Part shown: one piece after another, positions 10,472 through 29,905 of the stretch
Layout: every line of letters starts with the position of its first letter
Numbering within the stretch: the stretch's first letter is position 1
Origin: a virus
DNA: 29,905 bases
Reading direction: 5' to 3' (one strand)
IMG/VR virus record: IMGVR_UViG_2724679704_000001
Position numbers and translations under genes: made by a program
Notes under the pieces: generated by a model
The model's database searches: none
Seen by the model: the letters and a program-made list of their open reading frames with translations, nothing else
What the model was told of the DNA's origin: nothing

Positions 10472-12358
10472 TCAGGCTTCGATACGGCCGCTCACCTCCG
10501 TCGCAACCGCAGTGGCGTTCTCACAGATCGCAGTAATGACCGGTTCTATCGCAGTTCCGTGATACGAAAGCTGGATGGAGTAGGGCGGCTGACTCGAACT
10601 GACCGAAATGGTTGCGTAAAACCGATCGGCGTCCGTGAGGGTGTCATCCATCTCTTTGGCGACCGTAGCGGCATCGCCACGGGCACTGTGTGTTGACCGC
10701 TCTGCGTGTGACGGGCCGAAAGAGGCAGACAGCCGCACGTCATCAGTTGCGAATAGGTGGGGATACTCTGTCCGGAGCAATGGCACGTCGTCATTACGGA
10801 TATAGTACCGATCTGAAGCAGTCGGCGAGAGGTTGTTCGTCGCCCCGTCATCGATATTTAGCGAGTCACCGCTGAGGTTGAACTTCTCCGCGAGCCCCGG
10901 CACAGCCGAGCGCCACTCGTTCAGATCAGAAGGAACACTGTAGACGTAGCACAGATGCCCCTCCTGGACGCCCTTTTTGAGTAAGTCCTCGACTGCTGAG
11001 TACGGTTTGTTTAGCGCGGTAGCAAGCTCATCAGGGCGTGAGGGAGTTGAATCAACAGCCTCGACAACGCGATTGAGCGTTCCTTCCGCAACGATGGTGT
11101 CACTATCGATCCCTGCGAGATTAAGGCCCGCCTCGTCAGCTGCCCGGATCCCACGTCCGAGAGCGTCGTAATCCGGACTTTCTGGTGTCGCCAGATAGAT
11201 CGCATGCTTCAGCCGGCGGTTTTCCGTCTGGCGCATGATCCGTCCAAGCCGCTGAATAAACCGGACCGAGCTGACGACGTTCGACCAGACAAGCAGCAGG
11301 TCAGCTGCCGGTAGATCGACACCTTCCTCACCTGCTGCGGTAGCGATTACGAGGTCAGTCTCGTCGCTTTTGGCGTTCTCGACAAGTTGTTTTTGTGCTC
11401 CTGTGCTAGAGTGGAGACGCCCGAGCAGTACTTCCGGGTTATACGCATCTAGTTCCTCAGCGAGCCGCTCTGCCACACAGACTCGATCGACAAACAACAC
11501 TGCTTTTTCGAACTCATGATCGGCAAGAGCGGCGCGACATGCCTCGAGTTTGTGGAGATCAGGGGCCTTGCTGAGCAGAGGCCGGAGGCGATCGCCCATC
11601 ATCTCACTCATTACCGTGTCACGCTCGAGTGTATCCGCAAGTGCCAGCGCCCCATCTCGGGCGAGCATCCGACGACCGAGTTCTGGGAGACCAGCAAACT
11701 GTGTCCCATCGAGCTTCTGCCGGAACTCATCTAGCACCCCAGAGATCTCGCGGTACGATGGTGGGTACTGAGCATCGTATACCGCCCCAAGCCAGTCCGG
11801 GACGTGCTCATCTGGTAAATCAGCGTACGCCCACCGATGTATTGGACCGACGAGTTCCTCGACCGTGGACTCCGACCGGGGAGGAATAGTGGCACTAAGC
11901 CCAAGCGAACGGTCGAACGTAGCTGTCCGCATTAGTTCGGCAAACGCATGCTGGCCGGTGGTGTGGTGGCACTCATCGACGACGACAGCGTCGAAATCAT
12001 GCTGTGCGATGTCGTTGTGTGCTGTCTGCGGCGTTGTAACGACAGCTGTTCCCTGCTCCCACTGGTTGCGTCGGTCAGCCTGCGATGTCGTCCCGTACAG
12101 CTTCTCCGTTGGGATCGTTGTGTGCTGCCGATAGTACTCGGTGGTCTGTTCGACGAGGAAGCGGGAGGGCTCAACGATGAGGATACGGTCGATACCTGGC
12201 GCTGCGAGAACTGAGCAAGCCCACGCACAGCCGACGAGCGTCTTTCCGGTCCCAGTTGGAAGACAGACGGTCGCATGGTTGCGGCCGTCAGCGTATGCGA
12301 GTGCGTCGGCTTGGTAGTCCCGAAGGTCAAGTTGCGTGAGCAAATGGTCGATACTCAT
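10472..12358 (-). CDS. SF2 DExH helicase (XPB/Hef-like core) with a C-terminal wHTH-like region
   Basis: LRDYQ Q-motif, LPTGTGKT, VVDECHH, GLSAT, EEGVDLP, FIQRLGRIMR; SD-like GGGGTGA just before ATG 12358. Confidence 0.9.
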   Translation of the reverse strand: MSIDHLLTQLDLRDYQADALAYADGRNHATVCLPTGTGKTLVGCAWACSVLAAPGIDRILIVEPSRFLVEQTTEYYRQHTTIPTEKLYGTTSQADRRNQWEQGTAVVTTPQTAHNDIAQHDFDAVVVDECHHTTGQHAFAELMRTATFDRSLGLSATIPPRSESTVEELVGPIHRWAYADLPDEHVPDWLGAVYDAQYPPSYREISGVLDEFRQKLDGTQFAGLPELGRRMLARDGALALADTLERDTVMSEMMGDRLRPLLSKAPDLHKLEACRAALADHEFEKAVLFVDRVCVAERLAEELDAYNPEVLLGRLHSSTGAQKQLVENAKSDETDLVIATAAGEEGVDLPAADLLLVWSNVVSSVRFIQRLGRIMRQTENRRLKHAIYLATPESPDYDALGRGIRAADEAGLNLAGIDSDTIVAEGTLNRVVEAVDSTPSRPDELATALNKPYSAVEDLLKKGVQEGHLCYVYSVPSDLNEWRSAVPGLAEKFNLSGDSLNIDDGATNNLSPTASDRYYIRNDDVPLLRTEYPHLFATDDVRLSASFGPSHAERSTHSARGDAATVAKEMDDTLTDADRFYATISVSSSQPPYSIQLSYHGTAIEPVITAICENATAVATEVSGRIEA

Positions 12359-12516
12359 ACTGTCACCCCTGCTCCGGGCCAATTTACAGGCGTGGTGGTT
12401 GAGGACGGGTAGTTTTGGCTGTTCATTATCGATCTAGGTTCGTGGCTTGTGGTGTCCATAGCTGTAGCTCGTCACCGGGTTTCTCCAGTAATTTCTCGCG
12501 TTCAGCGTGCTAGTGT

Positions 12517-14352: not shown

Positions 14353-15174
14353 TCAGTGAGCGTCAATATCGGTGGCCTCCTCCAGCCGCTCAACACGCTC
14401 GCACAACTCTCCGAGGTCAGGGCCCTCAGTTCGGGCTTCCTCCAGCGGTCGGACATCGGTGAGCGCTTCGTCGATACGGTCGTCTTCAGCCTCGCCACCG
14501 AGGTAGAGGTTGCGCCGATCTTCGTGGAGGCTCCGGAGTGTCGACTCGGCGATGCCGGTGTCGTCAGCGACAGTCGCAAACGACTCACCGCGGTCGACGC
14601 GGGCGAGGGCCTCGCGAGTATGGAGGAATTCGGCCGGATCAACGCGGAGGTACCCATCTTCGACGACGAACCCCGCAGGCGGTCTCCCAGTCCACTTTCC
14701 GGCGGACTGTGCAGCCCGGACGCCCGACCGAATTCGCTGAAGGTTTTGCTGGTGTTCTATCTGGGCGAGGTCGCCCATCAACCGAGCAACCATGCTGTAT
14801 ATTGTCTGCTGGAGCTCGCCGTCGTCGACGTGAATCTTCAGGCCGACGTCGAGGGCTTCGACGCCGGTATCGTGTTCCAAGCAGTGCTGGATGAATTCGT
14901 GAATCTCAGTCGGACCGAGCCGAGAGAGCCGGCTGATCTCATGAACAACCACGAGATCGAACCGTCCCTCCTCAACGTCTTCGAGGAGGTGGTTGTACAC
15001 CTCGCGAGTGTCGGTGTCGGCGGCGCCGGAGACAATTTCAGGATACTCCTCAATGTCTTCGACACCGAGACGCTCTAGGTGTTCGTGTGCTTCGTCGAGC
15101 TGCCGAGACACGTCCTGGTCCGATGTCGAAACTCGGGCGTAGATTGCTGCGTCTGAGGGTCCGTTTTCGCTCAC
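14353..15174 (-). CDS. Serine recombinase (resolvase/invertase family) with C-terminal HTH
   Basis: AAIYARVSTSDQ catalytic motif, VVHEISRLSR, GKWTGRPPAGF, HTH FATVADDTGIAESTLRSL; visibly GC-richer than its flanks. Confidence 0.93.
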   Translation of the reverse strand: MSENGPSDAAIYARVSTSDQDVSRQLDEAHEHLERLGVEDIEEYPEIVSGAADTDTREVYNHLLEDVEEGRFDLVVVHEISRLSRLGPTEIHEFIQHCLEHDTGVEALDVGLKIHVDDGELQQTIYSMVARLMGDLAQIEHQQNLQRIRSGVRAAQSAGKWTGRPPAGFVVEDGYLRVDPAEFLHTREALARVDRGESFATVADDTGIAESTLRSLHEDRRNLYLGGEAEDDRIDEALTDVRPLEEARTEGPDLGELCERVERLEEATDIDAH

Positions 15175-15584
15175 GTTTTCGAGGACGTGCTATCATTTCA
15201 AACAAGTGGGGGTTATCGCGGTTCCGTGTAAACCACTAGGTTTTCGCAATAATTAACCTCAAGAGATTACTCCCTCAAGACTTGTCTATGAGCGAAGTGG
15301 TCTACGTGATTCGGATTTTTACCTCGAATATTCTGGGGCTCAAAAACGCGCTGACGGTGACTGTCAGGACGATCCTCAGCGACGTAGTTTTTCCCGTCCA
15401 TCCGTGCGGCTTTCTGCCAACCCCTCTATATTGCTTGGAAGACAAACTGTGGTCTTGTAGGCCTTCGAGCTTATGATGAATCAGAAGAGGACTTTGACCT
15501 CGAAGAGTTGCGCTTGGTCGTCTGGGCGGATGCGGTTTGATTGACTAGTCCTTCGAATATAGGGATGATTTCCTTTTATTTATT

Positions 15585-15983
15585 TTATTGTACCTGCTCT
15601 CTTGCGGACTTCAATTCTGTATCACCGAACTCAACAGTTTCTTCAATCCCGCCTCGCCGTGCCTGTTCGAGCCGGATGTACATTTTTTTAGGAGATATTG
15701 TCTCGGTAATTTCTTCATACATCTCAGCACCAAGTCCTTCGGCAGTGATCTCAACATCACGATACGATTCAAGGAACTTTTTCAGGCTCTTGCTCTCGAC
15801 ACAGTCTTCGGAAGGAACGTATTTTAGAGTGAACTCATAGTAATCAGGCCCTCCGAAGTCGAACGGACAGAGTGCTGTTACTTCGTCTGTTTCAAACGTA
15901 TACACCTGAGCGACTGACGTCTCCGGGGCTTCAAAAGAGTCCAGTAAGGAACTTCGTTCAGAACTGGAAGAGGACTGTGACAT
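15585..15983 (-). CDS. queF: QueF-type preQ0 nitrile reductase (unimodular T-fold)
   Basis: ALCPFDFGGPDY (catalytic Cys and Asp), QueF motif ESKSLKKF, second Glu 19 residues after the motif Glu, terminal RRGGI. Confidence 0.82.
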   Translation of the reverse strand: MSQSSSSSERSSLLDSFEAPETSVAQVYTFETDEVTALCPFDFGGPDYYEFTLKYVPSEDCVESKSLKKFLESYRDVEITAEGLGAEMYEEITETISPKKMYIRLEQARRGGIEETVEFGDTELKSAREQVQ

Positions 15984-16017
15984 AGTACAATCTACGTGTC
16001 CCCTCTAATAAACGCTC

Positions 16018-16554
16018 TCACTTACTCAGGTGCCGTTCCATCTGATACATTTCTCGACCACCATTTGTAAAGTACGAATCAACTTTGTGAAACCCGATAG
16101 CCTCCCAGAATTGTACTGCGGGAGCTTCGGCTGCAACGTCCGCGATTATTGATTCCTTATTATGCTCTTTTGCAAATTCAATAGCCTTTTTCACCAAGTA
16201 CTGTCCGATTCCATAGCCTCGATAATCTGGTGAAACAGCAACAAGGCGTATTTGTGCTTCCGTTTGGTCAAGCACTCTCGATTCACACCAAACCATGAGT
16301 CCGCCGATGATCGCATCGTGGGGTGCAAAATAAAACAACCGTCGGTCAGGCCGTGACGCTGCACGTTCCAGGGTGTCCCGATGAGTGAACCAATGGAGTT
16401 CAGATTTGATCTGATTAGAATTAAAAAAAGAATTCAATTCTGATACCGATCTCTCACTTTTGCTAATTGATTTGACAAGGAAGTCAGAGATCTGGAGGTC
16501 GACTGTAGTTGGCACTGCCGTAGAATTATTTGATCGTTGAATATTTGTTGTCAT
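16018..16554 (-). CDS. GNAT-family N-acetyltransferase
   Basis: IRLVAVSPDYRGYGIGQYLV acetyl-CoA motif A, AVQFWEAIGF motif B; ATGA overlap with the upstream ATPase. Confidence 0.9.
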   Translation of the reverse strand: MTTNIQRSNNSTAVPTTVDLQISDFLVKSISKSERSVSELNSFFNSNQIKSELHWFTHRDTLERAASRPDRRLFYFAPHDAIIGGLMVWCESRVLDQTEAQIRLVAVSPDYRGYGIGQYLVKKAIEFAKEHNKESIIADVAAEAPAVQFWEAIGFHKVDSYFTNGGREMYQMERHLSK

Positions 16555-17720
16555 GCCCCGCTGCCACCATGCTGACTCATACGTGGTCGCATTTGAACCT
16601 GCTTGACTACTTCTCTTTCGTCATCGACGCAGACTGCTTCACCAACTTTATCGATTTTCTTGATATAGGTCTTCAGCTGACTCCCCATGTACTCCTGACT
16701 TAGTTCGTTCAGCGACTGAATATCAGTACGAGTAGTGATTTTGTGACAGAAAATCAAGTCCATTTGGGACACGACATCTGAGGATACAGCACTTGGCTGT
16801 TGAGTTGCTATGCCGAGCGACAGCCCCGGCTGACGTCCCTCCTTGATCCATCGAATCAAGATATCCTTCGCAAGCGAGGACGACCCGGACGGTGCAAAAT
16901 TGTGTGCTTCATCGATGAATAGCCAGACCTTCGGAATATCAGAGGACAACTGTAGTTCCTCTCGACGGCGCGCTTTCGATCGCTCATCAAATATTTTTTT
17001 TGTCAGTACGTAGACGACCAAATTACGAAGACCGTACTTCCCTGGGTCGAGAACACTCACGTCGAGAATATTAACCCGAGAAGGATCGAGATTGTTCCAG
17101 ATGTCTGTATATGAGTCACTAAAGATGCCCCATTCGTGTGCCATCTCTAGACGATTGACAAGAGCGTCCACAGTCCGCTCGTTTGCTTTTTCGTCGTATT
17201 CAACTTCTTCGATGAGCTCGTCCAGGTCAAAGAAGTCTTGAGATTCGTTTAGCGAACGGACAGCTCGGTACAACGCAATACCCATCGGTTTGTTTATATT
17301 GAGATCGAAGAGTTCACACCACCCATCGGGAGAAATGTCAGAAGGATTGAGACGCAGGCTCTCGATTTCAATACCGCGGCGCATCATCTCATCGTAGACT
17401 TCAGGTCCGTAACGTTCTGTTGGATCGCCCGGAACGAGGAGTGTAGTGTCAAATCCAGTCGGCTGCATTCCCCAATCCCAGAGGAGATCTTGCTGTTCGT
17501 CATTTGGTTCGGCCATCGTCCAGTAAATCCCCATCGGGTCAACAACAAGGGGAACTGTGTCGGGCATCTCTCGGTTGACCTCCTCGATGACGTTTCCCAA
17601 CGAATAGCTCTTGCCGGTCCCTCGCTTCCCACAAACGAATAGAGCACGGGCCTTCGAAGTGTCAATAAGCGTTTCCTCGCCGCTATCACGTTCCTCGCCA
17701 ATGAATATTTCTTGTGTCAT
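16551..17720 (-). CDS. HerA/DUF87-like P-loop ATPase, no obvious N-terminal HAS barrel
   Basis: FVCGKRGTGKSY, VVDPMGIY, WLFIDEAHNF, IKEGRQPGLSLGIATQQPS. Confidence 0.85.
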   Translation of the reverse strand: MTQEIFIGEERDSGEETLIDTSKARALFVCGKRGTGKSYSLGNVIEEVNREMPDTVPLVVDPMGIYWTMAEPNDEQQDLLWDWGMQPTGFDTTLLVPGDPTERYGPEVYDEMMRRGIEIESLRLNPSDISPDGWCELFDLNINKPMGIALYRAVRSLNESQDFFDLDELIEEVEYDEKANERTVDALVNRLEMAHEWGIFSDSYTDIWNNLDPSRVNILDVSVLDPGKYGLRNLVVYVLTKKIFDERSKARRREELQLSSDIPKVWLFIDEAHNFAPSGSSSLAKDILIRWIKEGRQPGLSLGIATQQPSAVSSDVVSQMDLIFCHKITTRTDIQSLNELSQEYMGSQLKTYIKKIDKVGEAVCVDDEREVVKQVQMRPRMSQHGGSGA

Positions 17721-18892
17721 TTCAGATCCTCGTATTCAATTAACGGAACAATGGACTCTTGGTACGAAAAGCCACCGTGTACTCCTGGTTCGTTACTTCG
17801 TAGGTTATTGAATATGTATGGGTGATAAAGCCGGAGATATTGCTGACCAGCCCAGAAGGATGTTTCACCAACGGACTCAGGAACAGATGCGCTGGCTGGA
17901 GGGTCTTCATAGTCCCGACGAATTCCCTGCTTCCACTTTTCATCGAGTGCCTCAAAGTCAGTATCCATCCGCCAGAGAATACCATGGTCGGCAACAGCGA
18001 AAATACGGAATGAGTCCGTTTCTTTGCTGATCGTTTCACGGAGGTCAGACAACTTTTGATGAACTGCGTCTACCTCACTCTGGATCACAGGATCCTCCTT
18101 CATTCGGTGCGCTACACGTTCAGGACCGGTGAGAGTGAACTGGAGATAGGTCTTTGGTCGATACCAATCGTGGGTCTGTAGATATGAGATGGAATCACCA
18201 AAGTCCTGGATGTTTCCGATTACGTCGTTCTTGGAGAAACCATCGTGTAATTCGTCAGAAAGGTCGTTATCCTTACGTTCCCAGTAGGTGAACGCCTTCC
18301 GGGTTTTATATCCCTTGTTGAAGAGCCGATATTGGAGATGCTTCCCATTAGACGCCCCACGGACGACATTTGGGTAGCCACAATCTGTACGTGTTGGGCA
18401 ATCAACATAGATTGGCTCTGCCTCATAGCCTGAGTCTGTCCAATCCTGATAGGAGAGGCCATCAACAATAACCAGCGCAATGACATCAACACCAGATGCC
18501 GCCTCCGTGATGAGATCGCCGACCTCTGATTGACAAGTGGTTGTGCTCTCCACATCGTCCCAAGAAATCGAACCCTCTGATATGAGTCTATTGAGCGACC
18601 TATCGTAAACGGTGCCAGTGTATTCGACCTGTTCTATCGAAGGTGGGTTGTAGAGCGTAAGTGACCTATCAAAGGACGGCTTAGGTCCCTGATCTCGAAT
18701 GATCACATCGGTTTCAATCAAATTAGTCGGAGACTCATAGAGGCGGTAAAACTCTTCAAGCGATTCAACGGTATCGATACCATGCCTGTTTTGTAGTACC
18801 CGAGACTCGAGCCCTCCGATATTTGCGACAACTGGTCCGTCACGTGTCGCTTCAGCCAAGGCAGACAGTGACTCGATGGTACAGGTGGACAC
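17717..18892 (-). CDS. pglZ: PglZ-like alkaline-phosphatase-superfamily protein (compact)
   Basis: LVIVDGLSY, CPTRT, AVADHG, HGGFSYQESIVP match PglZ motifs; GTG start 5 nt after the large ATPase stop. Confidence 0.8.
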   Translation of the reverse strand: MSTCTIESLSALAEATRDGPVVANIGGLESRVLQNRHGIDTVESLEEFYRLYESPTNLIETDVIIRDQGPKPSFDRSLTLYNPPSIEQVEYTGTVYDRSLNRLISEGSISWDDVESTTTCQSEVGDLITEAASGVDVIALVIVDGLSYQDWTDSGYEAEPIYVDCPTRTDCGYPNVVRGASNGKHLQYRLFNKGYKTRKAFTYWERKDNDLSDELHDGFSKNDVIGNIQDFGDSISYLQTHDWYRPKTYLQFTLTGPERVAHRMKEDPVIQSEVDAVHQKLSDLRETISKETDSFRIFAVADHGILWRMDTDFEALDEKWKQGIRRDYEDPPASASVPESVGETSFWAGQQYLRLYHPYIFNNLRSNEPGVHGGFSYQESIVPLIEYEDLK

Positions 18893-18897
18893 GGGAG

Positions 18898-21800
18898 TTA
18901 CCTATGTTCGCTTTTGATCGAGAGCGTGATATGGTTCCCCTCGAATAAGGTTTCCAGATCGGCAAAGAACTCTGCAACGTCGGTGTCACCTTTCTTTTCA
19001 GAGACTGCAATTAGGACGCTCTCCAAGTCAGACTGATCCCGATAGTCCAGTTCATCCATAATATATTCAAGATCTTCTGGGGGAGTCTCAGTGACCTGTC
19101 GCCACTCGCGAACGTCTTGATGGAGTGCCTCAATTGAATCTCGGATTTCGTCGATTCGTTCGCCGACGTTCACCTCGCGATTGTCAATCGAGAGACTCAA
19201 TTTCTCATCGGTGTTGGGGAACGAGTTCGAACGGCCATCCTCAGTCGGAAGTTGGATAGCCGAAGTGATATCCATTTGACTGACAGCCTGATGGATATCT
19301 TCAATAGTAGATTCGAAGTCGGCTATCTGATCGCGGATATCAGCCGGAGTCGGGTCAGCTTCATCCGGAACCTGATTCAACAACTCAGCATACTCAATGC
19401 TGGTCTCAATCGATTTGATATCGGACTTTACATCTTCGATTCCATCGCTGTTCTCGACCAGCTGACGGCGGAACTCATGCTTGAGGTCATTACGTGACTT
19501 CTCAGCATTGTTAGGACTCAGGTTTTGTCTGATACTTGGGTGGCCGGAAGTACCAATCTTCAGCGTGTTCTCAAGCACATTCTTCCGGTAATTGAAGTTC
19601 TCTTCGTCCCCCTGAGTTATCTCCTCGAATTGGTCTTTGAGGTCTTCGAACTGCTGCCGATACATTTCGGCATTCCGCAGTGCCTGAGGGAAGTCGTCGT
19701 GGTCACCGCCTTTCTGGAACTCAGTCTGAATCTCACTCATCAGAGCGGTAAGCTCATCTCTGATTGACATCGCGGCACTGTTGTCAGGATGGGTGTTTGC
19801 ATACTGAACAATGTCCGAACGAGCGGCGTCCATGTCATTCGCAAGTCGACACCAATCCGCGTAGTCAGCCGCGTCCTCTTTGATATCCTCTAATTCTTCA
19901 TCAACCTGCTCAGCGATTTCTTTCGCCTCGCTAATTGAGTCCTGTAGAGTATTAATCTCACTCAGAGTTGCCGTGCCAGATGTAATCTCGAGATCTGTAT
20001 CAAGATCAGAGCGGGCAGAGTCGGCCTCTGTAGTTGCTTTTGTAAAGTTGGATGATAGTTCAGTCTCGATGTCTTTGATATGGAGGCCGAACGGAACATT
20101 AGACTTCTCGACAGTCTTTTTCAGATCGCGAGGCTTGTTTCTGGATGAAAGCCCTTTGAGTCTGTCTATTGTTCCTCGGGCACGTTCATGAAGGGTCGCA
20201 CTTGTGGCCTTGATCTGCGTCGAGATCTGCGAATCTACCGCTTCTAGCTCGGCGTTAAGATCATCAAGTATCTCAATGTCGTCATTCGTCGTTCCACTGA
20301 GTTCCTCCTCGATGCGATCCAACTCATCAGTGATCGAGTCATACTCACTCCACTCGTTCGAGATTTCGTTGAGCTCGGCAGCCGTGTTTCGGAGTGATTC
20401 CAGCCGAGATTTGACTTGGTCGATGTCGATAGCAATGTCGCTCAGTTCGACCGTGCCATCGTTTTGATCATGCTTGATGAAATCTCGACCAACAAGGAGA
20501 CGGATTGCCCAGTCAACTTCTTCCTGCCGGTACCCCTTCTCCCCGGCTACATCATATAACTCACTGACGGCGACAGTTTCCTTCTCTTGCTCCTCGATAT
20601 GGTCTTTAACAAGTTCTTCAAGCGGATGAAGGGTCAACCGAACCCTGGCATCCTTGCCCTGCCAGACTTCGGTGTCAACGAGATCTTCAAATTGTTTATC
20701 AAGGCGTGTTTTTGCTGTCGAATTACTAGATACCCCGATCGCGTTGGAAATATCGCTTTTTGTACCTTCAATTGGGGTATTACCCCGCTTTTGTGAGATC
20801 CGGATATTCGGATCGTTTCCTACTAGGAGGGATTCATAGTCATCTAAGAAGGTCTGGTAATTGTCCGAGATGAAGAGGGTTTTATAATCAGGATAGACCT
20901 CTTCGATTACACGGTTGAAGATTTTCTCGACGACCTTTGACGGATCAACGGTCCGGCGACTACTCCCTGATTCATCGAGGAAGTCGTCCCCATTCAGGGG
21001 AGGGCCAAACGCCTTCTGAATGCTTTGCGTGACTAGCTGGTCACGGATATATTCCAACTGTGTCTCCTGGTTGGGATTGACTGTTTGGTTCTCCTCCCAA
21101 TTACGCATGAAGTGATGCAAGGAGAGCAGCAGATGAGGGCTGACGTCTTCCGGACTCATGTAATCTTCCAACATAACGATATTGCTCGGGAGGCTGTCGA
21201 AAGAATCAGCTAAGTCTAGATGTAGAAGAACCTCGTCAGTAGATACCCGTTCGATGTGAGGGGTGACTTCAGTCTGCTTCTCCATGTTAACGGCAAAGCC
21301 AATCGTGAGGTCAGTATCTGTGCCTTCATCGGGCGATTTAACTGATGTAGCATCCGTGCCCATTCGGATTTCAATAAGCCGCTCAGGGTACTCTTGCCCG
21401 TTGAATGACCCACGAAAGACTGCCGCGTACACTCCTCCAGTTTCGGGCTCAAAGGCGTGTTCGGTAACCCAGCTGCTCAGACTCTTTCCTCGAACAGCGG
21501 GGAAGAGTTCTTCCGAAGCAACAAATTCTCGGAACGTCTCAGAAGCGTTCGAATCGTATATGTCTGTGGTGTCATAATCCCGATAGAACTGTGTGAACAG
21601 TTCGTCTTTGATCCCACGATCCTCTCCTTCCCGCTCAAGACGTTTGAGCGTGCGCCCTTCCTCGTGTGTGATGATGAGCTGTCCGTGAAGTTCTCCTTTG
21701 ACCTGTTCTTTCGCCTCGTGAACCCCATACTGCTTCAGTAGGTCATCTGAGACTCCTCGAGGGAATACCCCACACAGCTTGATGAAATTCTCACGATCGG

Positions 21801-22989
21801 AGGTACTTATTTGATCAGAATTAATCGCCTCTGTGATTGCGGTTTTGATGTGGTCTCCTTTGAATCGGACAACGCCATTATAGTACGCATTAGCGAGGTC
21901 AAGAGCATCAAACGCCTCCGACTCAGAGAGGTAGTGCTCGATAGCGATCGTGAGAATGTCCACAACTGAACGAGGGCCGTTTGAAAGAGGAGGTCCACGT
22001 TCACAGATCTGACCAATTGCGTCTAGCGTATCCTCGGTAATTACTTCGTAGCGTCTGTCCTTGAAACCGTAAGTTTCAGCCAGACTTTCCCACAGCTTAG
22101 TCGGGAAATCTCGGTTGTAAACATTCGCTAAGTTGAGTTGAACGTTCTGTTCTGCTAACCGCGCAAGAACATCGTCTGCATTCACGTCCAGGTCTCCGTG
22201 GAGACCATCGTCCATGGTGAACAGAAGACCCAAGCCGTCGCCTTCGTTCAGGCCGAGGGCTGTGCTTTTTGCAATATCACGTAGCTTAGAGTATGCTTCT
22301 TTGTCAGACGAGTGGCTGGATATGAACTGCTGAAGTTCGTCGGCAATAACGACGAGGCCTTTGTACCCAGCGTCTTTTGCGATCTGATTACATTCAGAAA
22401 GGAAATCCAGGACGTGTTGGACCGAGAATTCGATATCAATCGATCCCGACTCGATTAGTCGCTCGAACTCTTCCCGGGTTTGATCTTTGTCATCGAATCC
22501 AGTTTGGTCAACAATATCTTCGACGTTACTGGTCACTTTGGCCTGGTACCGCTGTTCGAGGGTTTCTAGATGCTCTTCTCGGTCCCTCAAGCGGAACCGC
22601 ATCCATCCGTACACGGCGTCGACAATTGACTGTAGTTCATCGAAATAGATCGGAGGGGTAGTAATGTAGTTGTCTTCCTGGTCAAGAAGGTACCAAACTT
22701 TTCCCGTTGTACTGGTCTTCCCAAACCCGTAGGGGCCCACAATGTATCCAGGAACAGATTTATTCAGATCTTCATCTTCGAGGGCTCCAGTCAACGAATC
22801 AATAAACCGTTGAATGTCTGGCTGGATCAGGTGAGTCCGAGCGTACTCAATGTATTCGGTCTCGATATCGCTCGGCTGGTCTAAAAATCGGTGAGCGCTT
22901 GATGTATTGACAATCCCCTCATCTTTGTTCAGCGTGTCATTGAGTTCTCGAAGAGAGGACTCGATATTTTGCGCATTCGCCTGTCCCAT
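18898..22989 (-). CDS. BrxC/PglY-like large P-loop ATPase with wHTH-like segments and a long coiled-coil tail
   Basis: 1363 aa; IVGPYGFGKT Walker A, VVIADELQQF Walker B near the N-terminus; heptad-rich acidic C-terminal third; directly upstream of PglZ. Confidence 0.75.
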   Translation of the reverse strand: MGQANAQNIESSLRELNDTLNKDEGIVNTSSAHRFLDQPSDIETEYIEYARTHLIQPDIQRFIDSLTGALEDEDLNKSVPGYIVGPYGFGKTSTTGKVWYLLDQEDNYITTPPIYFDELQSIVDAVYGWMRFRLRDREEHLETLEQRYQAKVTSNVEDIVDQTGFDDKDQTREEFERLIESGSIDIEFSVQHVLDFLSECNQIAKDAGYKGLVVIADELQQFISSHSSDKEAYSKLRDIAKSTALGLNEGDGLGLLFTMDDGLHGDLDVNADDVLARLAEQNVQLNLANVYNRDFPTKLWESLAETYGFKDRRYEVITEDTLDAIGQICERGPPLSNGPRSVVDILTIAIEHYLSESEAFDALDLANAYYNGVVRFKGDHIKTAITEAINSDQISTSDRENFIKLCGVFPRGVSDDLLKQYGVHEAKEQVKGELHGQLIITHEEGRTLKRLEREGEDRGIKDELFTQFYRDYDTTDIYDSNASETFREFVASEELFPAVRGKSLSSWVTEHAFEPETGGVYAAVFRGSFNGQEYPERLIEIRMGTDATSVKSPDEGTDTDLTIGFAVNMEKQTEVTPHIERVSTDEVLLHLDLADSFDSLPSNIVMLEDYMSPEDVSPHLLLSLHHFMRNWEENQTVNPNQETQLEYIRDQLVTQSIQKAFGPPLNGDDFLDESGSSRRTVDPSKVVEKIFNRVIEEVYPDYKTLFISDNYQTFLDDYESLLVGNDPNIRISQKRGNTPIEGTKSDISNAIGVSSNSTAKTRLDKQFEDLVDTEVWQGKDARVRLTLHPLEELVKDHIEEQEKETVAVSELYDVAGEKGYRQEEVDWAIRLLVGRDFIKHDQNDGTVELSDIAIDIDQVKSRLESLRNTAAELNEISNEWSEYDSITDELDRIEEELSGTTNDDIEILDDLNAELEAVDSQISTQIKATSATLHERARGTIDRLKGLSSRNKPRDLKKTVEKSNVPFGLHIKDIETELSSNFTKATTEADSARSDLDTDLEITSGTATLSEINTLQDSISEAKEIAEQVDEELEDIKEDAADYADWCRLANDMDAARSDIVQYANTHPDNSAAMSIRDELTALMSEIQTEFQKGGDHDDFPQALRNAEMYRQQFEDLKDQFEEITQGDEENFNYRKNVLENTLKIGTSGHPSIRQNLSPNNAEKSRNDLKHEFRRQLVENSDGIEDVKSDIKSIETSIEYAELLNQVPDEADPTPADIRDQIADFESTIEDIHQAVSQMDITSAIQLPTEDGRSNSFPNTDEKLSLSIDNREVNVGERIDEIRDSIEALHQDVREWRQVTETPPEDLEYIMDELDYRDQSDLESVLIAVSEKKGDTDVAEFFADLETLFEGNHITLSIKSEHR

Positions 22990-23076
22990 AGTAACTATAC
23001 CCTTCTGGCACTTCTCTGTTAATAAATTATTGGATGATCGACAGACAGTAGAGAAGGGGGATATCTCCTGTAAGTA

Positions 23077-23478
23077 TCAGTTGTCAGAGAGTGTAACACG
23101 CGCTTTTGTTTCCGGAACCGGTTTGCGCGAAACTGAAATCACCGTGTCTGGAGTGTCAAATCCAATAATTTCACGCGCTCTGCGTGACGCTGTCCTGGTT
23201 GCCGGTACATTATCGACGAAGAGGACTTGTGTTGAGGCATTTTTCACGGGCAGCCATGGAGCGTATCCCCACCCGTTCTGATGAACCATCATATATTTAG
23301 CCAGCGTGGTCTTGCCAACACCTCTTGCTCCATACAAGTTGTAATGACCGCCGTCCTGATCAGCAAATTCCAAAAGTTTCGAGCGTACTGCGATCTGATC
23401 TTCGGTCAGGAGGTCATCTTGTAGTCGCCGCTTTGCCTCATTAGATTTCTGTAGTAGTTCTGCAACAGGTGACGACAT
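23077..23478 (-). CDS. Small P-loop protein in the BrxB position
   Basis: 133 aa from ATG 23478 (1 nt after the upstream stop); LYGARGVGKTT and VLFVDN. Confidence 0.7.
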   Translation of the reverse strand: MSSPVAELLQKSNEAKRRLQDDLLTEDQIAVRSKLLEFADQDGGHYNLYGARGVGKTTLAKYMMVHQNGWGYAPWLPVKNASTQVLFVDNVPATRTASRRAREIIGFDTPDTVISVSRKPVPETKARVTLSDN

Positions 23479-23479
23479 G

Positions 23480-24340
23480 CTATTGGAGGTCATCAAGAGT
23501 TACTTCTCGGTCTAATCGAAGGTTGAGACCAAAGTCATGTTTCTTTGAGAAGAATGGATACGCCTGTTCAGCGTACTCGGTTACCTCATCGAACCCATCA
23601 TCAGAGAGGAGGCACATCTGTTGAATTCGAACTTTGGTATCATCTGTCACTCTGAGGAGCGTCTCATAATCTGTCTCGTTTTGCTTATAGATATGATCCA
23701 CGGCCAAGATCATAAGTTCCGGAGGGCAGAACGCACGTCGCTCGAATCCGGGACTCCCAGAGTCATCCTCCACTAGCACCTCGGGGGATAGTTCCGCAAG
23801 ATACTGCAGATAATTATTGAAACTCTTTGTACTAAGTGACACGCCGCTTCGTGTCTTGGAAACGTCGACATCTGGACTCTGTTCTGCTAATTCGGTGACT
23901 TCACCAACAATTGTTCCACGCTCTCCCCGAAAAGTGCTAAACGGAGAATTATCATAGAGATAGTTGGTCATCTCTCTGTATGTGTACGACATAAATACAT
24001 ATCTGTCTGGGTATCTCTCAAAAGCAGAGTAATAAAGAAAATGAAGTACCGTATTAAACAGGTTCCGATCCCTATACATGATATCGACCAGGGAGTCACC
24101 GAGTTCAGTAAACTGAAATTGATCGGTGGGATCGACAATCCCGAGCCGGCCAAGCACCGAACCTTCTGTAGATTTCTCCTTGCTTCCGATTGAGTGGCCA
24201 AGATCTCTGGCCGATTCAAGAAGCCCTGGATTCGATGATGGCGATGTTGCCTCCACGGTGTCCAAATATTCATACAACTCCTGAGGGCCAGGGTCACTAA
24301 TATGGAATTTTGAAGTGTAATGACTCATCTCGTCATTCAA
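23480..24340 (-). CDS. Winged-helix-like protein in the BrxA/SspB/DpdG position
   Basis: VLGRLGIVDPTDQFQFTELGDSL wHTH-like segment; SD GAGGTG 5 nt before TTG 24340 (alternative ATG 24328); family inferred from position. Confidence 0.6.
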   Translation of the reverse strand: MNDEMSHYTSKFHISDPGPQELYEYLDTVEATSPSSNPGLLESARDLGHSIGSKEKSTEGSVLGRLGIVDPTDQFQFTELGDSLVDIMYRDRNLFNTVLHFLYYSAFERYPDRYVFMSYTYREMTNYLYDNSPFSTFRGERGTIVGEVTELAEQSPDVDVSKTRSGVSLSTKSFNNYLQYLAELSPEVLVEDDSGSPGFERRAFCPPELMILAVDHIYKQNETDYETLLRVTDDTKVRIQQMCLLSDDGFDEVTEYAEQAYPFFSKKHDFGLNLRLDREVTLDDLQ

Positions 24341-24375
24341 TTAGACACCTCAAACAAATATCTACCTCTAGATAA

Positions 24376-25443
24376 TCAGTTCCGGACCGACTCGGTTGAT
24401 GTAAAGTTCTTTAGGTAGCCGGTATACTTTGAGTTAGGATTCATCATCTCGATGAGTTCTTCGAGCGAATATTCTAGGATCATGTCTGTCATCTCACGCA
24501 TAACAATAAGATTATGTAAAATTCGATGTTGACGACTGTTTTGCAGGGATTCGAATGACTGACAGTACGGACATTCATGTCCGGTCTCCTCTTTTATTTC
24601 CCTCAATTCCTCTCGGAAGACTGTAGGACCGGACCGATTGCGAAGGTGCGTAACATTAAGCCGACTTTTAAATGGGAAAAAGATATTTCCATAACCCCCA
24701 GATCGTATCCAGCCAGTCGAATCGAACGTATCAACACCACACTGATATAGGATAGGAATTGAAGTTGGCCCACCAATTCCGAATGCATGGACGTCTAGAT
24801 CATACTTCCGAGCCTCTTTCACAACGAATTGTAGTAGTTCGAGATTCTCCTCATTCAAATAATTCACACCCCCATTTACTCCTCCGGTACCAAAGCTCCC
24901 AAACCCAATTTTATTTATTTTGTCAAACTTCCTATAAACATCGAGACACTCAACGATTTGTTGTTTAGTATGCCCCTGGATTACTGGCACTGCGCGCTCT
25001 TGCTTGTCGCTTGGTAGTTCATTATATAGCATTCGAGAGAGAGAGATTGTGTCTTGGACCTTCTGCTCTATCGTTGCCTCGTCGTCTCCTTCTACGGGCA
25101 CTTGGTCGGGCAGAACTAATTCGTCAGGCCAGTCTGTCGACAAGTAGTATTCTCGATCAAATGTATAGATGTCTTTCATCGTATATTCATCGTTGACTTG
25201 AGACTCATACCCTCCCGAATCACAAGCGAATGTGAGATCGTAGGACGATGAAAGCGATTCAAGATAATCAACCGCAATCTCTGAGGAGGTAAGCGGACAA
25301 AACATCATCCGACCAAGAGCATACTCTACAAGGTTGTATTCCTCGAGGTCCTCCACGATATCGATAAGCTGAGAACGATTGATTTGCGCGACAGACGCCA
25401 CGAATTCCATCTCGCCGACGTCATCGAATTGGTATCGTCGCAT
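24376..25443 (-). CDS. dpdA: TGT-family deazaguanine transglycosylase, DpdA-like (probably DNA-acting)
   Basis: CDSGGYE, LPDQVP, PVIQG, VHAFGIG, GVDTFDS (catalytic Asp), zinc site HECPYC...HN; 355 aa with no PUA extension. Confidence 0.82.
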   Translation of the reverse strand: MRRYQFDDVGEMEFVASVAQINRSQLIDIVEDLEEYNLVEYALGRMMFCPLTSSEIAVDYLESLSSSYDLTFACDSGGYESQVNDEYTMKDIYTFDREYYLSTDWPDELVLPDQVPVEGDDEATIEQKVQDTISLSRMLYNELPSDKQERAVPVIQGHTKQQIVECLDVYRKFDKINKIGFGSFGTGGVNGGVNYLNEENLELLQFVVKEARKYDLDVHAFGIGGPTSIPILYQCGVDTFDSTGWIRSGGYGNIFFPFKSRLNVTHLRNRSGPTVFREELREIKEETGHECPYCQSFESLQNSRQHRILHNLIVMREMTDMILEYSLEELIEMMNPNSKYTGYLKNFTSTESVRN

Positions 25444-25792
25444 GAAGCTACTTACTCAGATACCCTACCTCACTCGTCATATCATTTGTGTCTTCAATAC
25501 AGGGAGTGTAAGCACAGATATATTATAATAACATTACTATTATCCCGATTCTTGTTCCGTTGAATCCACAGAAGGTGAGTAACCGATGCTACGTTCGAAT
25601 ATAGAGTGGAATGTTTGTGATCTATGTTTGTGATTTCACGAGACTATTTCATTTATTCTAGTGTAGCTAACAATATACGCGAAAATTTCGCGATACTACA
25701 ATGAGCCACAACCTGCTCAGCGAACGGAGCATTACTTCTCAGAGACTGGAAGTAGCAAGACCACTTTGGGGTCTATCAGCTGGGAACTGTTA

Positions 25793-26164
25793 CTAAGATT
25801 GGATGGTAATACTCACTTTGTAAGGTACTTTCACAGTGTCTTTGCCAAGTGAAAGCGCTTTGTGCGTATTTCCAGATTCGTCTTGTACAATCAGTGTCGT
25901 TGATCGATCTTTCAAACGGAAGATAGCATAGTGAGTATAGGTATCTGTCTGAAGTGCCTGAAGATCAACGGGAGGCGAATCCTCTAACGATCCGATTTCA
26001 GTTACTTTTCCCACCTCGGTGGTTGCTCCCTGCCTTTTGTAAAATTTGAGCTGATACAGCATCTCTCCAGATTTGCCGTCCATTTGCTTTTCATCAGGGG
26101 CTCGCGTGGAGTCTATTTCACTCAAGGACAAGCTACTCTCTCGTTGATCTTCTCGTTTACTCAT
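25793..26164 (-). CDS. Hypothetical protein
   Basis: 123-aa ATG ORF on the same strand, upstream of the dpdA operon; no recognisable motif. Confidence 0.55.
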   Translation of the reverse strand: MSKREDQRESSLSLSEIDSTRAPDEKQMDGKSGEMLYQLKFYKRQGATTEVGKVTEIGSLEDSPPVDLQALQTDTYTHYAIFRLKDRSTTLIVQDESGNTHKALSLGKDTVKVPYKVSITIQS

Positions 26165-26375
26165 TGTCTATTCTTATCGTAGTGTATATTTGTAATCTTG
26201 GATGGTGTTGTTCATCTTCTTGATCGGTCGAGATCTCCTCAACATTTGGCGGAAAAGTGTCTCTCACCAATCCGGCGAAAATCCGTGTGAAAGGTGTCCA
26301 TACTTTGTGAATAAGTGTTCATAATCCAAAACTAGTGAACAGGCCCGTACTCGATAATTAAGCTGGATCCTAATA

Positions 26376-26381
26376 TTTATA
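26376..26381 (+). promoter_or_regulatory. TATA box of the queDEC operon (leaderless)
   Basis: TTTATA about 24-29 nt upstream of the queD ATG at 26405. Confidence 0.55.
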
Positions 26382-26404
26382 TCTGCGATTGGTAATCTTC
26401 GAGT

Positions 26405-26866
26405 ATGTCTCAAAGCATATCGCAAGATGATTCTACGGCTGAAAACTTGGTCGAGGCAGGCCAGCGGACACTCAAAATCGGAGGCGACAATCCAATCCGG
26501 ATCAGTTCGGGTCATCGAATCCTACATCACGACGGGAAGTGTTCGCGGCCACACGGCCACAACTACGAGATCACTGTCGAAGTGACCGGTGAACTCACCG
26601 AGGAGGGCTGGGTCGTCGACAAAGGCGACGTCACGGACGTCATCGACGCGTGGGACCACCGGTTCCTCGTCGAAGAGGGCGATCCGCTCGTCGACGCGTT
26701 CGAAGCGTCCGGCGACGGCGACGCGCTCGTCGTCTTGGAGCACCCGCCGACGGCAGAGGTGATGAGCGTCCTCCTCGAACAACGCATGCTCGATGCGTTC
26801 CCGGACACCGTCTCGGACGTGTCGGTGTCGGTGAGCGAAACCGGCGAGCTCTGTGCGACCTACTAA
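26405..26866 (+). CDS. queD: 6-carboxy-5,6,7,8-tetrahydropterin synthase
   Basis: GHRILHHDGKCSRPHGHNY, WDHRFL, PTAE; TAATG overlap with queE. Confidence 0.93.
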   Translation: MSQSISQDDSTAENLVEAGQRTLKIGGDNPIRISSGHRILHHDGKCSRPHGHNYEITVEVTGELTEEGWVVDKGDVTDVIDAWDHRFLVEEGDPLVDAFEASGDGDALVVLEHPPTAEVMSVLLEQRMLDAFPDTVSDVSVSVSETGELCATY

Positions 26867-27642
26867 TGCCGGTCGCAAATGATGTCGAGGAGCCCACAAC
26901 GGACGCTGACGCGACTGGTGAGGGGCTTCCGATCAACGAGGTGTTCTACTCGTTGCAGGGCGAAGGAACGCTCGCAGGCGTGCCCTCTGTCTTCGTGCGG
27001 ACGTCTGGGTGTAATCTGCGGTGTTGGTTCTGTGATTCGTACCATACGTCGTGGGAGCCGACTGGGGCGTGGCGCGATGTCGATTCGATCTTGGAGGAAG
27101 TCCGCTCCCACGAGCAGGCGAATCACGTCGTACTCACGGGCGGGGAGCCGCTCATCCACGAGGAGTCCGTCGAGCTCCTCGAACGGCTCGACGAAGAGGG
27201 GTATCACGCGACGGTGGAGACAAATGGGACGATCTACCGGGACGCACCAATCGATCTGGCGAGTATCAGCCCGAAACTGGCGAGCAGCACGCCGACACCG
27301 GAGCGCGACCCGAAGGGGGAGGGCGAGTGGGAGGAGAAACACGAACAGAATCGGATCGATATGGATGCGTTGTCCCAGATGGTCGATGCGTACGAGACCC
27401 AACTCAAGTTCGTCGTGACCGACGAGACGGACCTCCCGGAGATCACAGACCTGGTTGACCGAGTGCGAGAAGCGACGGCGACGACCGTCGCCGATGATGA
27501 CGTCCTGTTGATGCCAGAGGGCATGACGCGCGAGCAACTCGACGGGACGCGAAGCGAGGTCGCCGAGCTGGCGATGGAGTACGGCTACCGGTACACGCCA
27601 CGACTCCACGTGGACCTATGGAACGACGCACCGGGTACATGA
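26866..27642 (+). CDS. queE: 7-carboxy-7-deazaguanine synthase (radical SAM)
   Basis: EVFYSLQGEG, GCNLRCWFCDS (CxxxCxxC), VLTGGEP, ETNGT, PRLHVDLW; true start at ATG 26866. Confidence 0.95.
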   Translation: MPVANDVEEPTTDADATGEGLPINEVFYSLQGEGTLAGVPSVFVRTSGCNLRCWFCDSYHTSWEPTGAWRDVDSILEEVRSHEQANHVVLTGGEPLIHEESVELLERLDEEGYHATVETNGTIYRDAPIDLASISPKLASSTPTPERDPKGEGEWEEKHEQNRIDMDALSQMVDAYETQLKFVVTDETDLPEITDLVDRVREATATTVADDDVLLMPEGMTREQLDGTRSEVAELAMEYGYRYTPRLHVDLWNDAPGT

Positions 27643-27758
27643 GTACGTCACTCTCAGAGACCGGTCGGAAGAGCGCGGTGCCGCGAGTGCGGTGTGAGTG
27701 TCGCCTGCGGCGTGGTGAACAGAGCGATAACCGATTCGACGCAACCAAGCAGACATGA
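27639..27758 (+). CDS. 39-aa micro-ORF linking queE and queC
   Basis: MSTSLSETGRKSAVPRVRCECRLRRGEQSDNRFDATKQT*; ATGA overlaps at both ends. Confidence 0.4.
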   Translation: MSTSLSETGRKSAVPRVRCECRLRRGEQSDNRFDATKQT

Positions 27759-28444
27759 GCAACAAAAGCGCGGTCATTCTGGTGTCCGGCGGGATGGATA
27801 GTGCGACGGCTGTGTACGAGGCGATCGAGCAAGGGTACGAGCCGTACTTCCTCCATACGTCGTACGGGCAGCGCACGGAAGACAAGGAGTACGAGTGTGC
27901 GAAAGCGCTCGCTGAGGAAGTTGATGCGGCTGACTTCCTCCATATCGAAACGGGGCACCTCTCGCAGATCGGTGCATCGAGTTTGACGGACGAAGAGATG
28001 GACGTGGCCGACGCGGATCTTGAGAGTGACGAGATTCCGACGTCGTACGTTCCCTTCCGAAACGCGAATCTGTTGTCGATGGCGACGTCGTACGCGGAAG
28101 CGACTGATTCGGAGGCACTGTTTATCGGCGCGCACTCCGAAGATTTCTCCGGCTACCCTGATTGCCGTCCGGCGTTCTTCGACGCCTTTCAGAACGTGAT
28201 CGACGTCGGGACGAAACCAGAGACAGAGATTGAATTGAAAGCGCCGTTCGTCGAGTGGTCGAAAACGGAAATCGCGGAGCGTGGGTTGGAACTCGACGTG
28301 CCGTACGACATCACGTGGTCGTGTTACCGCGACGAGGAACCGGCGTGTGGGACGTGTGATGCGTGTGCGTTCCGGCTTGAGGCGTTCCGGAATGTCGGGT
28401 CACGCGATCCGATCGCATACGCTGAGCGGCCGGAGTTCTCGTAA
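27755..28444 (+). CDS. queC: 7-cyano-7-deazaguanine (preQ0) synthase
   Basis: SGGMDS PP-loop, YVPFRNANLL, YPDCR, TWSCY...CGTCDAC zinc site. Confidence 0.96.
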   Translation: MSNKSAVILVSGGMDSATAVYEAIEQGYEPYFLHTSYGQRTEDKEYECAKALAEEVDAADFLHIETGHLSQIGASSLTDEEMDVADADLESDEIPTSYVPFRNANLLSMATSYAEATDSEALFIGAHSEDFSGYPDCRPAFFDAFQNVIDVGTKPETEIELKAPFVEWSKTEIAERGLELDVPYDITWSCYRDEEPACGTCDACAFRLEAFRNVGSRDPIAYAERPEFS

Positions 28445-29590: not shown

Positions 29591-29905
29591 ACATCTATTG
29601 TGTTCTAATGCCACGAAAGTAAGCCCTTGTGAACGGTTCTACCGACTGTGTTGAAACCTTTAGTGCCTGTGGCGTTCTAAATCTACTCTGTATCTTGTAC
29701 GCAGTTTCTGATATAGTGTGGAGAGGCCGGCGTTCTTCATTGGTCTATGAGTTCCCTGTGTTGACCTCAGCGAAGTCAAACTGTGTCGTTACTACGGGTT
29801 TCTACAGACCGTACGTGTTTACCCCGGAGTCTCGACAGCCGGCACAGCGTGAGCCCGTGAGATCAGTTCATTGTTACTGACGGCTCGACGAAGCTCTTCG
29901 TATGG

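Follow-up and report, generated by a model that had tools for sequence, protein, structure and literature searches.

The window (the whole stretch of DNA that was analysed, 29,905 nucleotides) contained a minus-strand operon with the gene order TGT, 286-aa protein, 139-aa P-loop protein, 1363-aa BrxC-like protein, 391-aa PglZ-like protein, HerA-like protein, GNAT, and QueF. The queD-queE-queC genes at 26405–28444 were divergent from that operon (Table 1). The TGA stop codon of the GNAT gene was located 34 nt ahead of the QueF ATG, which confirmed the spacing and the shared operon given in a preliminary description of this DNA. The TTTATTA in the spacer is possibly a leaderless promoter of QueF's own. 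For GNAT, an alternative start is the GTG at codon 14, which is used in the RefSeq annotation of the ortholog in Haloplanus sp. HW8-1 and may be the true start.

Table 1. Coordinates of the features in the window and the evidence for their assignment.
Feature	Position	Strand	Evidence
QueF, unimodular (YkvM-type) preQ0 reductase, haloarchaeal type A clade with His to Ala	15585..15983	-	Pfam, NCBIfam, alignment
GNAT-QueF spacer, 34 nt	15984..16017	-	TTTATTA about 28 nt ahead of QueF ATG
GNAT, small dedicated family, acetyl-CoA motif R112-G-Y-G-I-G117	16018..16554	-	Pfam, profile, AF2 model
HerA/FtsK-like ATPase	16551..17720	-	DUF87 4e-12; PADLOC HerA 2e-19, mad8 3e-18
PglZ-like protein, 391 aa	17717..18892	-	PADLOC PglZ 3.8e-6, weak match
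BrxC/DUF6079-like ATPase, 1363 aa	18898..22989	-	BrxC_BrxD 2.3e-6 (weak); RefSeq name
P-loop NTPase, 139 aa, BrxB-like slot	23077..23496	-	P-loop matches only; position conserved across cassettes
286-aa protein, BrxA/DUF4007 slot	23480..24340	-	Slot conserved across cassettes
DpdA-like DNA-type TGT	24376..25443	-	DSGGYE, LPD, FDS, H-x-C-x-x-C...HN motifs conserved
Conserved cassette protein, 123 aa	25793..26164	-	Kept in other cassettes
QueD	26405..26866	+	Divergent from the operon
QueE; ATG overlaps queD stop codon	26866..27642	+	Divergent from the operon
QueC; end of block common to Haloplanus sp. HW8-1	27755..28444	+	Divergent from the operon

Positions 15236–28443 were 97.3% identical to the plasmid NZ_CP098519.1 of Haloplanus sp. 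HW8-1, the closest genome among those searched. The archaeal host proposed in the preliminary description can thus be specified as a haloarchaeon. The window outside this 13.2-kb block was unrelated to HW8-1; therefore, the block had moved as one unit. The sole QueC of HW8-1 was inside the block, and the HW8-1 chromosome had a normal arcTGT and an ArcS-like protein. The ratio of synonymous to non-synonymous changes between the window and HW8-1 was 4:1 for QueF and 3:1 for GNAT, with too few changes for interpretation. Orthologs of the 391-aa PglZ-like protein on two metagenome contigs showed a faint match to Pfam PglZ. Family searches with the 286-aa protein gave no match, and a PUA domain was absent from the window TGT.

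BRC (BREX-Related Capture) was defined by a comparative-genomics paper in 2026 (NAR 2026 gkag035; PMC12839542), and the system type is therefore already published. BRC is composed of PglZ, DUF6079/BrxC, a small NTPase, DUF4007, and HerA/FtsK, with GNAT and TGT in a subset, "occasionally fused"; dPreQ0 was proposed as its only base, and the word QueF is absent from the paper (PMC12839542). The block in the window showed the same seven-part architecture, including the BrxA-like slot, GNAT, and TGT. The features that assign it to BRC were the HerA/FtsK translocase, the TGT and GNAT module, and the BrxC/DUF6079-like and PglZ-like proteins (both weak matches).

The 132-aa product of the QueF gene included ALCPFDFGGPDYY...VESKSLKKFLESYRDVEITAE. 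It matched Pfam QueF (PF14489) at 5e-17 and 62.3 bits, above the gathering cut-off of 27.3. The score on TIGR03139 preQ1 synthase was 82.1 bits, just below the equivalog cut-off of 86.9; the range in the type-A clade was 74–90 bits. In an HMMER search against solved structures, the top match was Bacillus subtilis QueF (YkvM; 4F8B) with an E-value of 8e-8, and the archaeal amidinotransferase QueF-L (5JYX) was last with 1.6e-4. Cys39, Asp47, and Glu82 of the window QueF were aligned with Cys55, Asp62, and Glu97 of 4F8B, and the unimodular tunnel fold and the C-terminal RGGI were also common to both. The NADPH motif E63SKSLKKF was paired with E78SKSLKLY of 4F8B, and the motif region was ungapped. 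It fitted seven of the eight positions of E(S/L)K(S/A)hK(L/Y)(Y/F/W), with Lys instead of Leu/Tyr at position 7. The two proteins were about 30% identical, and the window QueF was acidic, as a halophile would predict. The B. subtilis enzyme functions in tRNA queuosine synthesis, whereas the window QueF is assigned a putative role in DNA modification.

The preliminary description had stated that the spacing from the QueF motif to the second Glu and the catalytic Cys and Asp are kept, and the alignment with 4F8B agreed with this. Its account of the active site held for Cys, Asp, the motif, and Glu, but it had overlooked the missing auxiliary His. At this position (His96 in B. subtilis, His229 in Escherichia coli), the window QueF had Ala81. 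All 20 aligned type-A relatives (56–88% identical) read T/S-A/G-E at this site, so the loss of His is a clade trait and not decay. Cys, Asp, E-S-K-S-L-K, and Glu were invariant in the same 20 relatives.

Type-A QueF might not be a nitrile reductase. Without the His, its reaction could end at the amidine G+, an aldehyde, or an imine, or its substrate could be preQ0 that is already in DNA, just as QueF-L works on tRNA. The change of His96 to Ala throughout the clade, the TIGR03139 score below the cut-off, and the match of the window QueF to QueF-L are consistent with this. However, the NADPH motif was invariant in type A and is absent from QueF-L: 5JYX reads IEEFKKMV where the window QueF has ESKSLKKF, so the lack of this motif that defines QueF-L does not apply here. 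QueF-L itself retains the auxiliary His in the alignment, and the H229A and H96A mutants of QueF stay active (review PMC13740343). Type A also takes the place of the canonical type-B QueF in the same cassette, as described below. A type-A QueF without nitrile reductase activity is therefore highly improbable. In agreement with the preliminary description, the window QueF looks like a reductase rather than a QueF-L amidinotransferase. It is very probably a real preQ1 synthase that was recruited to feed a DNA transglycosylase.

The distribution of the cassette was investigated in 401 species genomes of the class Halobacteria. QueF was rare in the class, being found in 14 genomes. Close orthologs of the cassette HerA (62–100% identical) were present in exactly 11 genomes, and all 11 were among the 14 with QueF. 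The GNAT-family profile matched exactly 11 of the 401 genomes, the same 11 with cassette HerA, TGT, and QueF; these co-occurrence counts represent few independent lineages, namely two sub-lineages of the cassette, a single family of viruses, and the fusions in bacteria. By tblastn of the window proteins on 20-kb contexts, the same cassette was recovered in 11/11 genomes (the TGT of genome G171 was located separately). QueF was thus found in every archaeal GNAT-bearing cassette, and the window had queDEC too, which differs from the published description of BRC.

Two types of QueF were found in these cassettes. In 8 of the 11 genomes, a type-B QueF, 33–41% identical to the window QueF, was directly upstream of TGT. 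Type B was fully canonical (CLCP...QPDF, ELKSLKLY, and YHE) with 110–148 bits on TIGR03139. Type-A QueF was near the GNAT end in the window, HW8-1, and genomes G025 and G171, and genome G053 carried both types. A remnant of type-B QueF was sought in the 350-bp gap upstream of the window TGT, and none was found. The use of two QueF lineages for the same role within a single system speaks for a common function of type A and type B. The HerA-GNAT-QueF order of the window was repeated on two metagenome contigs, the TGTs of which were 61–69% identical. The neighbourhood of GNAT and QueF reported in the preliminary description was therefore valid for one sub-lineage, in which the genes are adjacent, but it was not conserved, since the other sub-lineage has QueF beside TGT. 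In archaea, GNAT was always after HerA and never beside TGT. The proposal that QueF serves DNA was supported by its association with a DNA-type transglycosylase. In genome G305, type-A QueF was immediately ahead of a DUF6610 gene; DUF6610 is DpdA4, the DNA transglycosylase of archaeal viruses (PMC10516641).

HerA proteins 34–38% identical to that of the window marked a second BRC variant in six genomes. The core of this sister variant consisted of a 921-aa phosphodiesterase/PglZ-like protein, 250-aa and 106-aa proteins, a 1281-aa ATPase, and HerA. Five of the six loci had as neighbours a 419-aa TGT (TGT419), a 637-aa ArcS-like TGT-DUF5591 protein, and a DUF6884 protein that showed weak DpdC/YaaA-like similarity. 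No QueF above the Pfam cut-off was found in these five genomes, and no PF00583 GNAT was found within the five loci. In contrast to the window cassette, the GNAT-less variant has ArcS-like and DUF6884 genes instead, and the QueF-GNAT pair and the ArcS-like-DUF6884 pair behave as alternative tailoring modules. The preliminary description had tied GNAT to QueF and TGT. A counterexample, GNAT in homologous loci without QueF, was sought and not found, because the QueF-less sister cassettes had no GNAT and, among the 401 genomes, the GNAT family occurred only in those with the cassette.

The window GNAT matched Pfam Acetyltransf_1 at 3.7e-14. It had the acyl-CoA motif R/Q-x-x-G-x-G/A, in which R112 and G115 were invariant. 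The three-dimensional structure was modelled by AlphaFold (AF2) with a pLDDT of 86. In a Foldseek search with this model, the polyamine N-acetyltransferases PaiA and SpeG were the best fold matches, with PaiA at the top (2.8e-11), and the protein N-alpha-acetyltransferases Ard1 and RimI also matched. The fold search thus did not discriminate between substrate classes. The archaeal family had Trp in place of the Tyr that is a frequent general acid in GNATs. Ten cassette GNATs were combined into a profile, which was searched against 1.84 billion representative proteins. It gave 14 clusters below 1e-20 and, past these, only generic GNATs at 1e-13 and weaker, which indicated a sharply bounded small family. 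A protein-atlas search with GNAT returned generic GNAT clusters and nothing else.

Fusions of GNAT with TGT were found in bacteria, which confirmed this point of the published BRC description. The fusions surfaced through relatives of the window TGT (31–39% identical, 455–515 aa) that bore an N-terminal GNAT; a word-based search from the GNAT side for longer GNAT fusions found none. The fusion gene was the first in bacterial BRC operons, and one was on a plasmid of Oscillatoria nigro-viridis PCC 7112. The fused domain was related to the archaeal GNAT family by hhalign (probability 96%, E 3e-9), and both shared the N-terminal signature K-x-E-x-x-F-x-Y-R-x-x-L-E. No QueF was found within the bacterial fusion loci. 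Bacteria usually encode their own QueF, and the hosts of these fusions presumably do so as well.

The GNAT family was also found in haloviruses. By tblastn against 50,697 phage records, GNAT matched HVTV-1, HVTV-2, HCTV-1, HCTV-5, and HCTV-16, and the sole other match was a weak one to a bacterial phage. The family was thus present in 5/5 Druskaviridae viruses, and gene 90 of HVTV-1 was a 38% identical homolog (E 9e-39). In each of the five viruses, the GNAT gene followed DNA polymerase B, and the genes of QueF, QueC, QueD, QueE, GTP cyclohydrolase I, and DpdA4 were located a few kb downstream. These five were the only archaeal viruses with QueF in the phage set. The bacterial dPreQ1 phages in the set had QueF, and this GNAT was not found in them. 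HVTV-1 QueF was 29% identical to the window QueF and kept the auxiliary His. On TIGR03139 it scored lower (78.3 bits) than the window QueF, yet its virus has dPreQ1 in vivo (PMC6884629).

The Druskaviridae pathway (PMC6884629; PMC10516641) resembled the window cassette in the archaeal setting, FolE/QueCDE, QueF, a DNA transglycosylase, and the same GNAT family, and dPreQ1 has been measured in the viral DNA. The difference was that the former is viral with the transglycosylase DpdA4/DUF6610, whereas the window has a cellular defence cassette with a TGT of the TGT355 family. The viral GNAT was not linked to the dPreQ1 pathway in Hutinet 2019 (PMC6884629) or Cui 2023 (PMC10516641). In HVTV-1 DNA, dPreQ1 was 88,607 per 10^6 nt, about 30% of G, by LC-MS targeted at five known nucleosides; the DNA resisted all restriction enzymes tested, and the authors allow for "other modifications" (PMC6884629). 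Because unacetylated dPreQ1 is present at about 30% of G, acetylation in HVTV-1 would be partial (perhaps minor or site-specific), transient, or absent, and quantitative acetylation of dPreQ1 in this virus is unlikely.

Although the QueF partners of this one GNAT family belonged to three lineages and the transglycosylases to two families unrelated to each other, GNAT and preQ1 were the constants. The gene associations indicate that GNAT belongs specifically to the preQ1/TGT module and did not come to lie there by chance. That GNAT acts on the amine of preQ1 is considered slightly better than an even chance from the same associations. Its position after HerA or PolB and away from TGT in archaea, the Trp in place of Tyr, the fold matches to Ard1 and RimI, the free dPreQ1 of HVTV-1, and the lack of this GNAT in bacterial dPreQ1 phages count against such a role. 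A tRNA-acetylating toxin was set aside as a candidate function, as GNAT is fused to TGT, is carried by lytic viruses, and has no evident antitoxin-like partner.

The mark could instead be plain dPreQ1, and GNAT, leaving the base untouched, could acetylate or regulate a protein such as HerA, TGT, or a replication protein, or could be an acetyl-CoA sensor. Such a function is suggested by the constant translational closeness of GNAT to cassette HerA and viral PolB, by Ard1 and RimI among the best fold matches, and by the unacetylated dPreQ1 in HVTV-1 DNA (PMC6884629). However, the sister cassettes have HerA and no GNAT, the fusion partner in bacteria is TGT and not HerA, and GNAT tracks QueF across the lineages and transglycosylase families given above. 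Protein acetylation with an untouched base was considered rather unlikely on balance.

GNAT could also acetylate free preQ1 only, as a control of a base foreign to archaea (for example, by keeping it out of tRNA via arcTGT or by buffering the pool), so that no acetyl base would enter DNA. The archaeal GNAT occurs only where QueF occurs, GNAT is missing from the dPreQ1 phages of bacteria, hosts that deal with preQ1 anyway, and HVTV-1 DNA contains free dPreQ1, all of which would fit this function. The TGT fusion, however, exists in bacteria, for which preQ1 is an ordinary metabolite, and no deacetylase or exporter was seen in the cassette. Control of free preQ1 alone is thus improbable. N-acylation of the aminomethyl group would be the most economical chemistry.

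A pathway ending in this acylation can be proposed from the observed gene content, catalytic motifs, co-occurrence, and fusions; which reactions the enzymes catalyse, in what order, and which base results are deduced from them. QueD, QueE, and QueC would produce preQ0. QueF would reduce free preQ0 to preQ1; Cys39 would act as the nucleophile, Asp47 would donate the proton, and ESKSLKKF would bind NADPH. To our knowledge, preQ1 is otherwise not made by archaea. The DpdA-like TGT would swap guanine in DNA for a preQ1-type base. GNAT would most likely use acyl-CoA to acylate the aminomethyl nitrogen of preQ1, either on the free base or once the base is in DNA, and the product at some or all sites would be 7-(acetamidomethyl)-7-deazaguanine. 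The BrxC-like, PglZ-like, and HerA-like proteins would act on DNA without the mark. Insertion of a preQ1-derived base into DNA by the cassette is probable, and the presence of N-acyl-dPreQ1 in DNA is considered somewhat less likely than not. The assignment of QueF and GNAT as the base-tailoring end of a mobile haloarchaeal BRC cassette that marks its own DNA with a preQ1-type 7-deazaguanine is modestly favoured.

Substitution at the aminomethyl nitrogen of preQ1 in DNA is already known from the phage enzymes DpdM (methyl) and DpdN (formyl), and N-acylation is among these reactions (fdPreQ1) (Cui 2023, PMC10516641). They differ from GNAT in belonging to unrelated families (a metal-dependent methyltransferase and a PF00551 formyltransferase) and in occurring only in bacterial phages. 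In the similar Salmonella Dpd system (DpdA/B/C and DpdD-K), host DNA likewise receives a 7-deazaguanine from a TGT-family enzyme, and this base serves a restriction module as the sign of self. Unlike Dpd, the window had no match to DpdB or DpdC among the proteins scanned, and its TGT matched NCBIfam DpdA weakly (23.5 bits against a cut-off of 200). Its restriction side is BREX/HerA-like, and the predicted base is preQ1-type, not preQ0/ADG. Acetylated dPreQ1, or a viral acetyltransferase tied to the pathway, was not mentioned in the searchable literature. Eight 7-deazaguanine derivatives are known in DNA; we know of none that is acetylated and none shown as an archaeal chromosomal self mark.

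As far as the searchable literature shows, the obligatory QueF, the coupling of QueF and GNAT, the ArcS-type sister variant, and the viral GNAT homolog are new. BRC has hitherto been defined by comparative genomics alone, and the link with QueF shifts its base prediction from dPreQ0 to a preQ1-type base. This link also offers the orphan GNAT a primary aliphatic amine, which makes chemical sense as its substrate. With some reserve, N-acetyl-dPreQ1 (or a different N-acyl-dPreQ1) is put forward as a natural DNA base, which may be the self mark of an archaeal BREX-like system and may also occur in part in HVTV-1-type haloviruses and in the bacteria with GNAT-TGT fusions. If this is true, it would be a new natural DNA base, the BREX-like system would have a mark that is not methyl, and host and virus would share one tailoring enzyme.

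The 34-nt spacer between the GNAT and QueF genes carried the sequence TTTATTA some 28 nt ahead of the QueF start codon (ATG), a distance that fits the TATA box of a haloarchaeal leaderless transcript. QueF may therefore be served by a promoter of its own. In Haloplanus sp. HW8-1, whose plasmid shares a 13.2-kb block with the window, the QueF ortholog has 99% identity and was named "hypothetical protein" in RefSeq (NZ_CP098519.1, 117826-118224). The RefSeq start of the HW8-1 GNAT was 13 codons downstream of the longest-ORF start, which removes the GNAT/HerA overlap.

Features of the window
Feature	Position (nt)	Strand	Remark
Orc1/Cdc6 gene	813-2042	-	
SF1 helicase	2896-5115	+	
Hef/Cas3-like helicase	10472-12382	-	
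Serine recombinase	14353-15174	-	Start ~60 nt past one end of the block shared with HW8-1 (13.2 kb)
GNAT-QueF spacer	15984-16017		
123-aa cassette protein	25793-26164	-	Without family match
HEAT-Mrr nuclease fusion	28613-29614	-	Just past the other end of the block

Type-A QueF, the lineage found in the window, also occurred outside the cassette. In the cellular contig G305:C3 (L031:14461-15634), it overlapped the start of the gene for DUF6610 (DpdA4), the DNA transglycosylase of archaeal viruses, and a C5 DNA methylase was encoded 1.6 kb upstream. This is a dPreQ1 module like that of halovirus HVTV-1 and may represent a provirus. In genome G354, an MCM helicase gene was beside type-A QueF.

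Neither the serine recombinase nor the HEAT-Mrr fusion was within the block common to the window and HW8-1. Outside that block, only the origin region of the window resembled HW8-1 replicons, and weakly. With its Orc1/Cdc6 and helicase genes, the window resembles a section of a plasmid or minichromosome. In two metagenome contigs (L099 and L100), a Rad50-NurA-HerA repair gene cluster directly adjoined the cassette.

The 123-aa protein was among the best conserved of the cassette proteins, with 66-77% identity in G053, G080, G161, and G040. Its gene was divergent from QueF-B (the canonical lineage) and TGT in most cassettes; in the window and HW8-1 it was on the same strand as TGT, which implies a local inversion. 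Genome G357 had the full cassette, including QueF-B and TGT; QueC was not found in this whole genome (99% complete; E ≤ 1e-10). Perhaps the G357 cassette relies on preQ0 salvage, or it may not be functional.

A second BRC variant was present in six haloarchaeal genomes (for example L076, G186:C2:77000-96999; others within L072-L083). Its core consisted of a 921-aa PglZ/phosphodiesterase-like protein, 250-aa and 106-aa proteins, a 1281-aa ATPase, and HerA. The neighbours were a 419-aa TGT, a DUF6884 protein weakly matching DpdC/YaaA, and an ArcS-like TGT-DUF5591 protein; queDEC adjoined the variant in two genomes. For this variant, the predicted DNA mark is dG+ or dADG.
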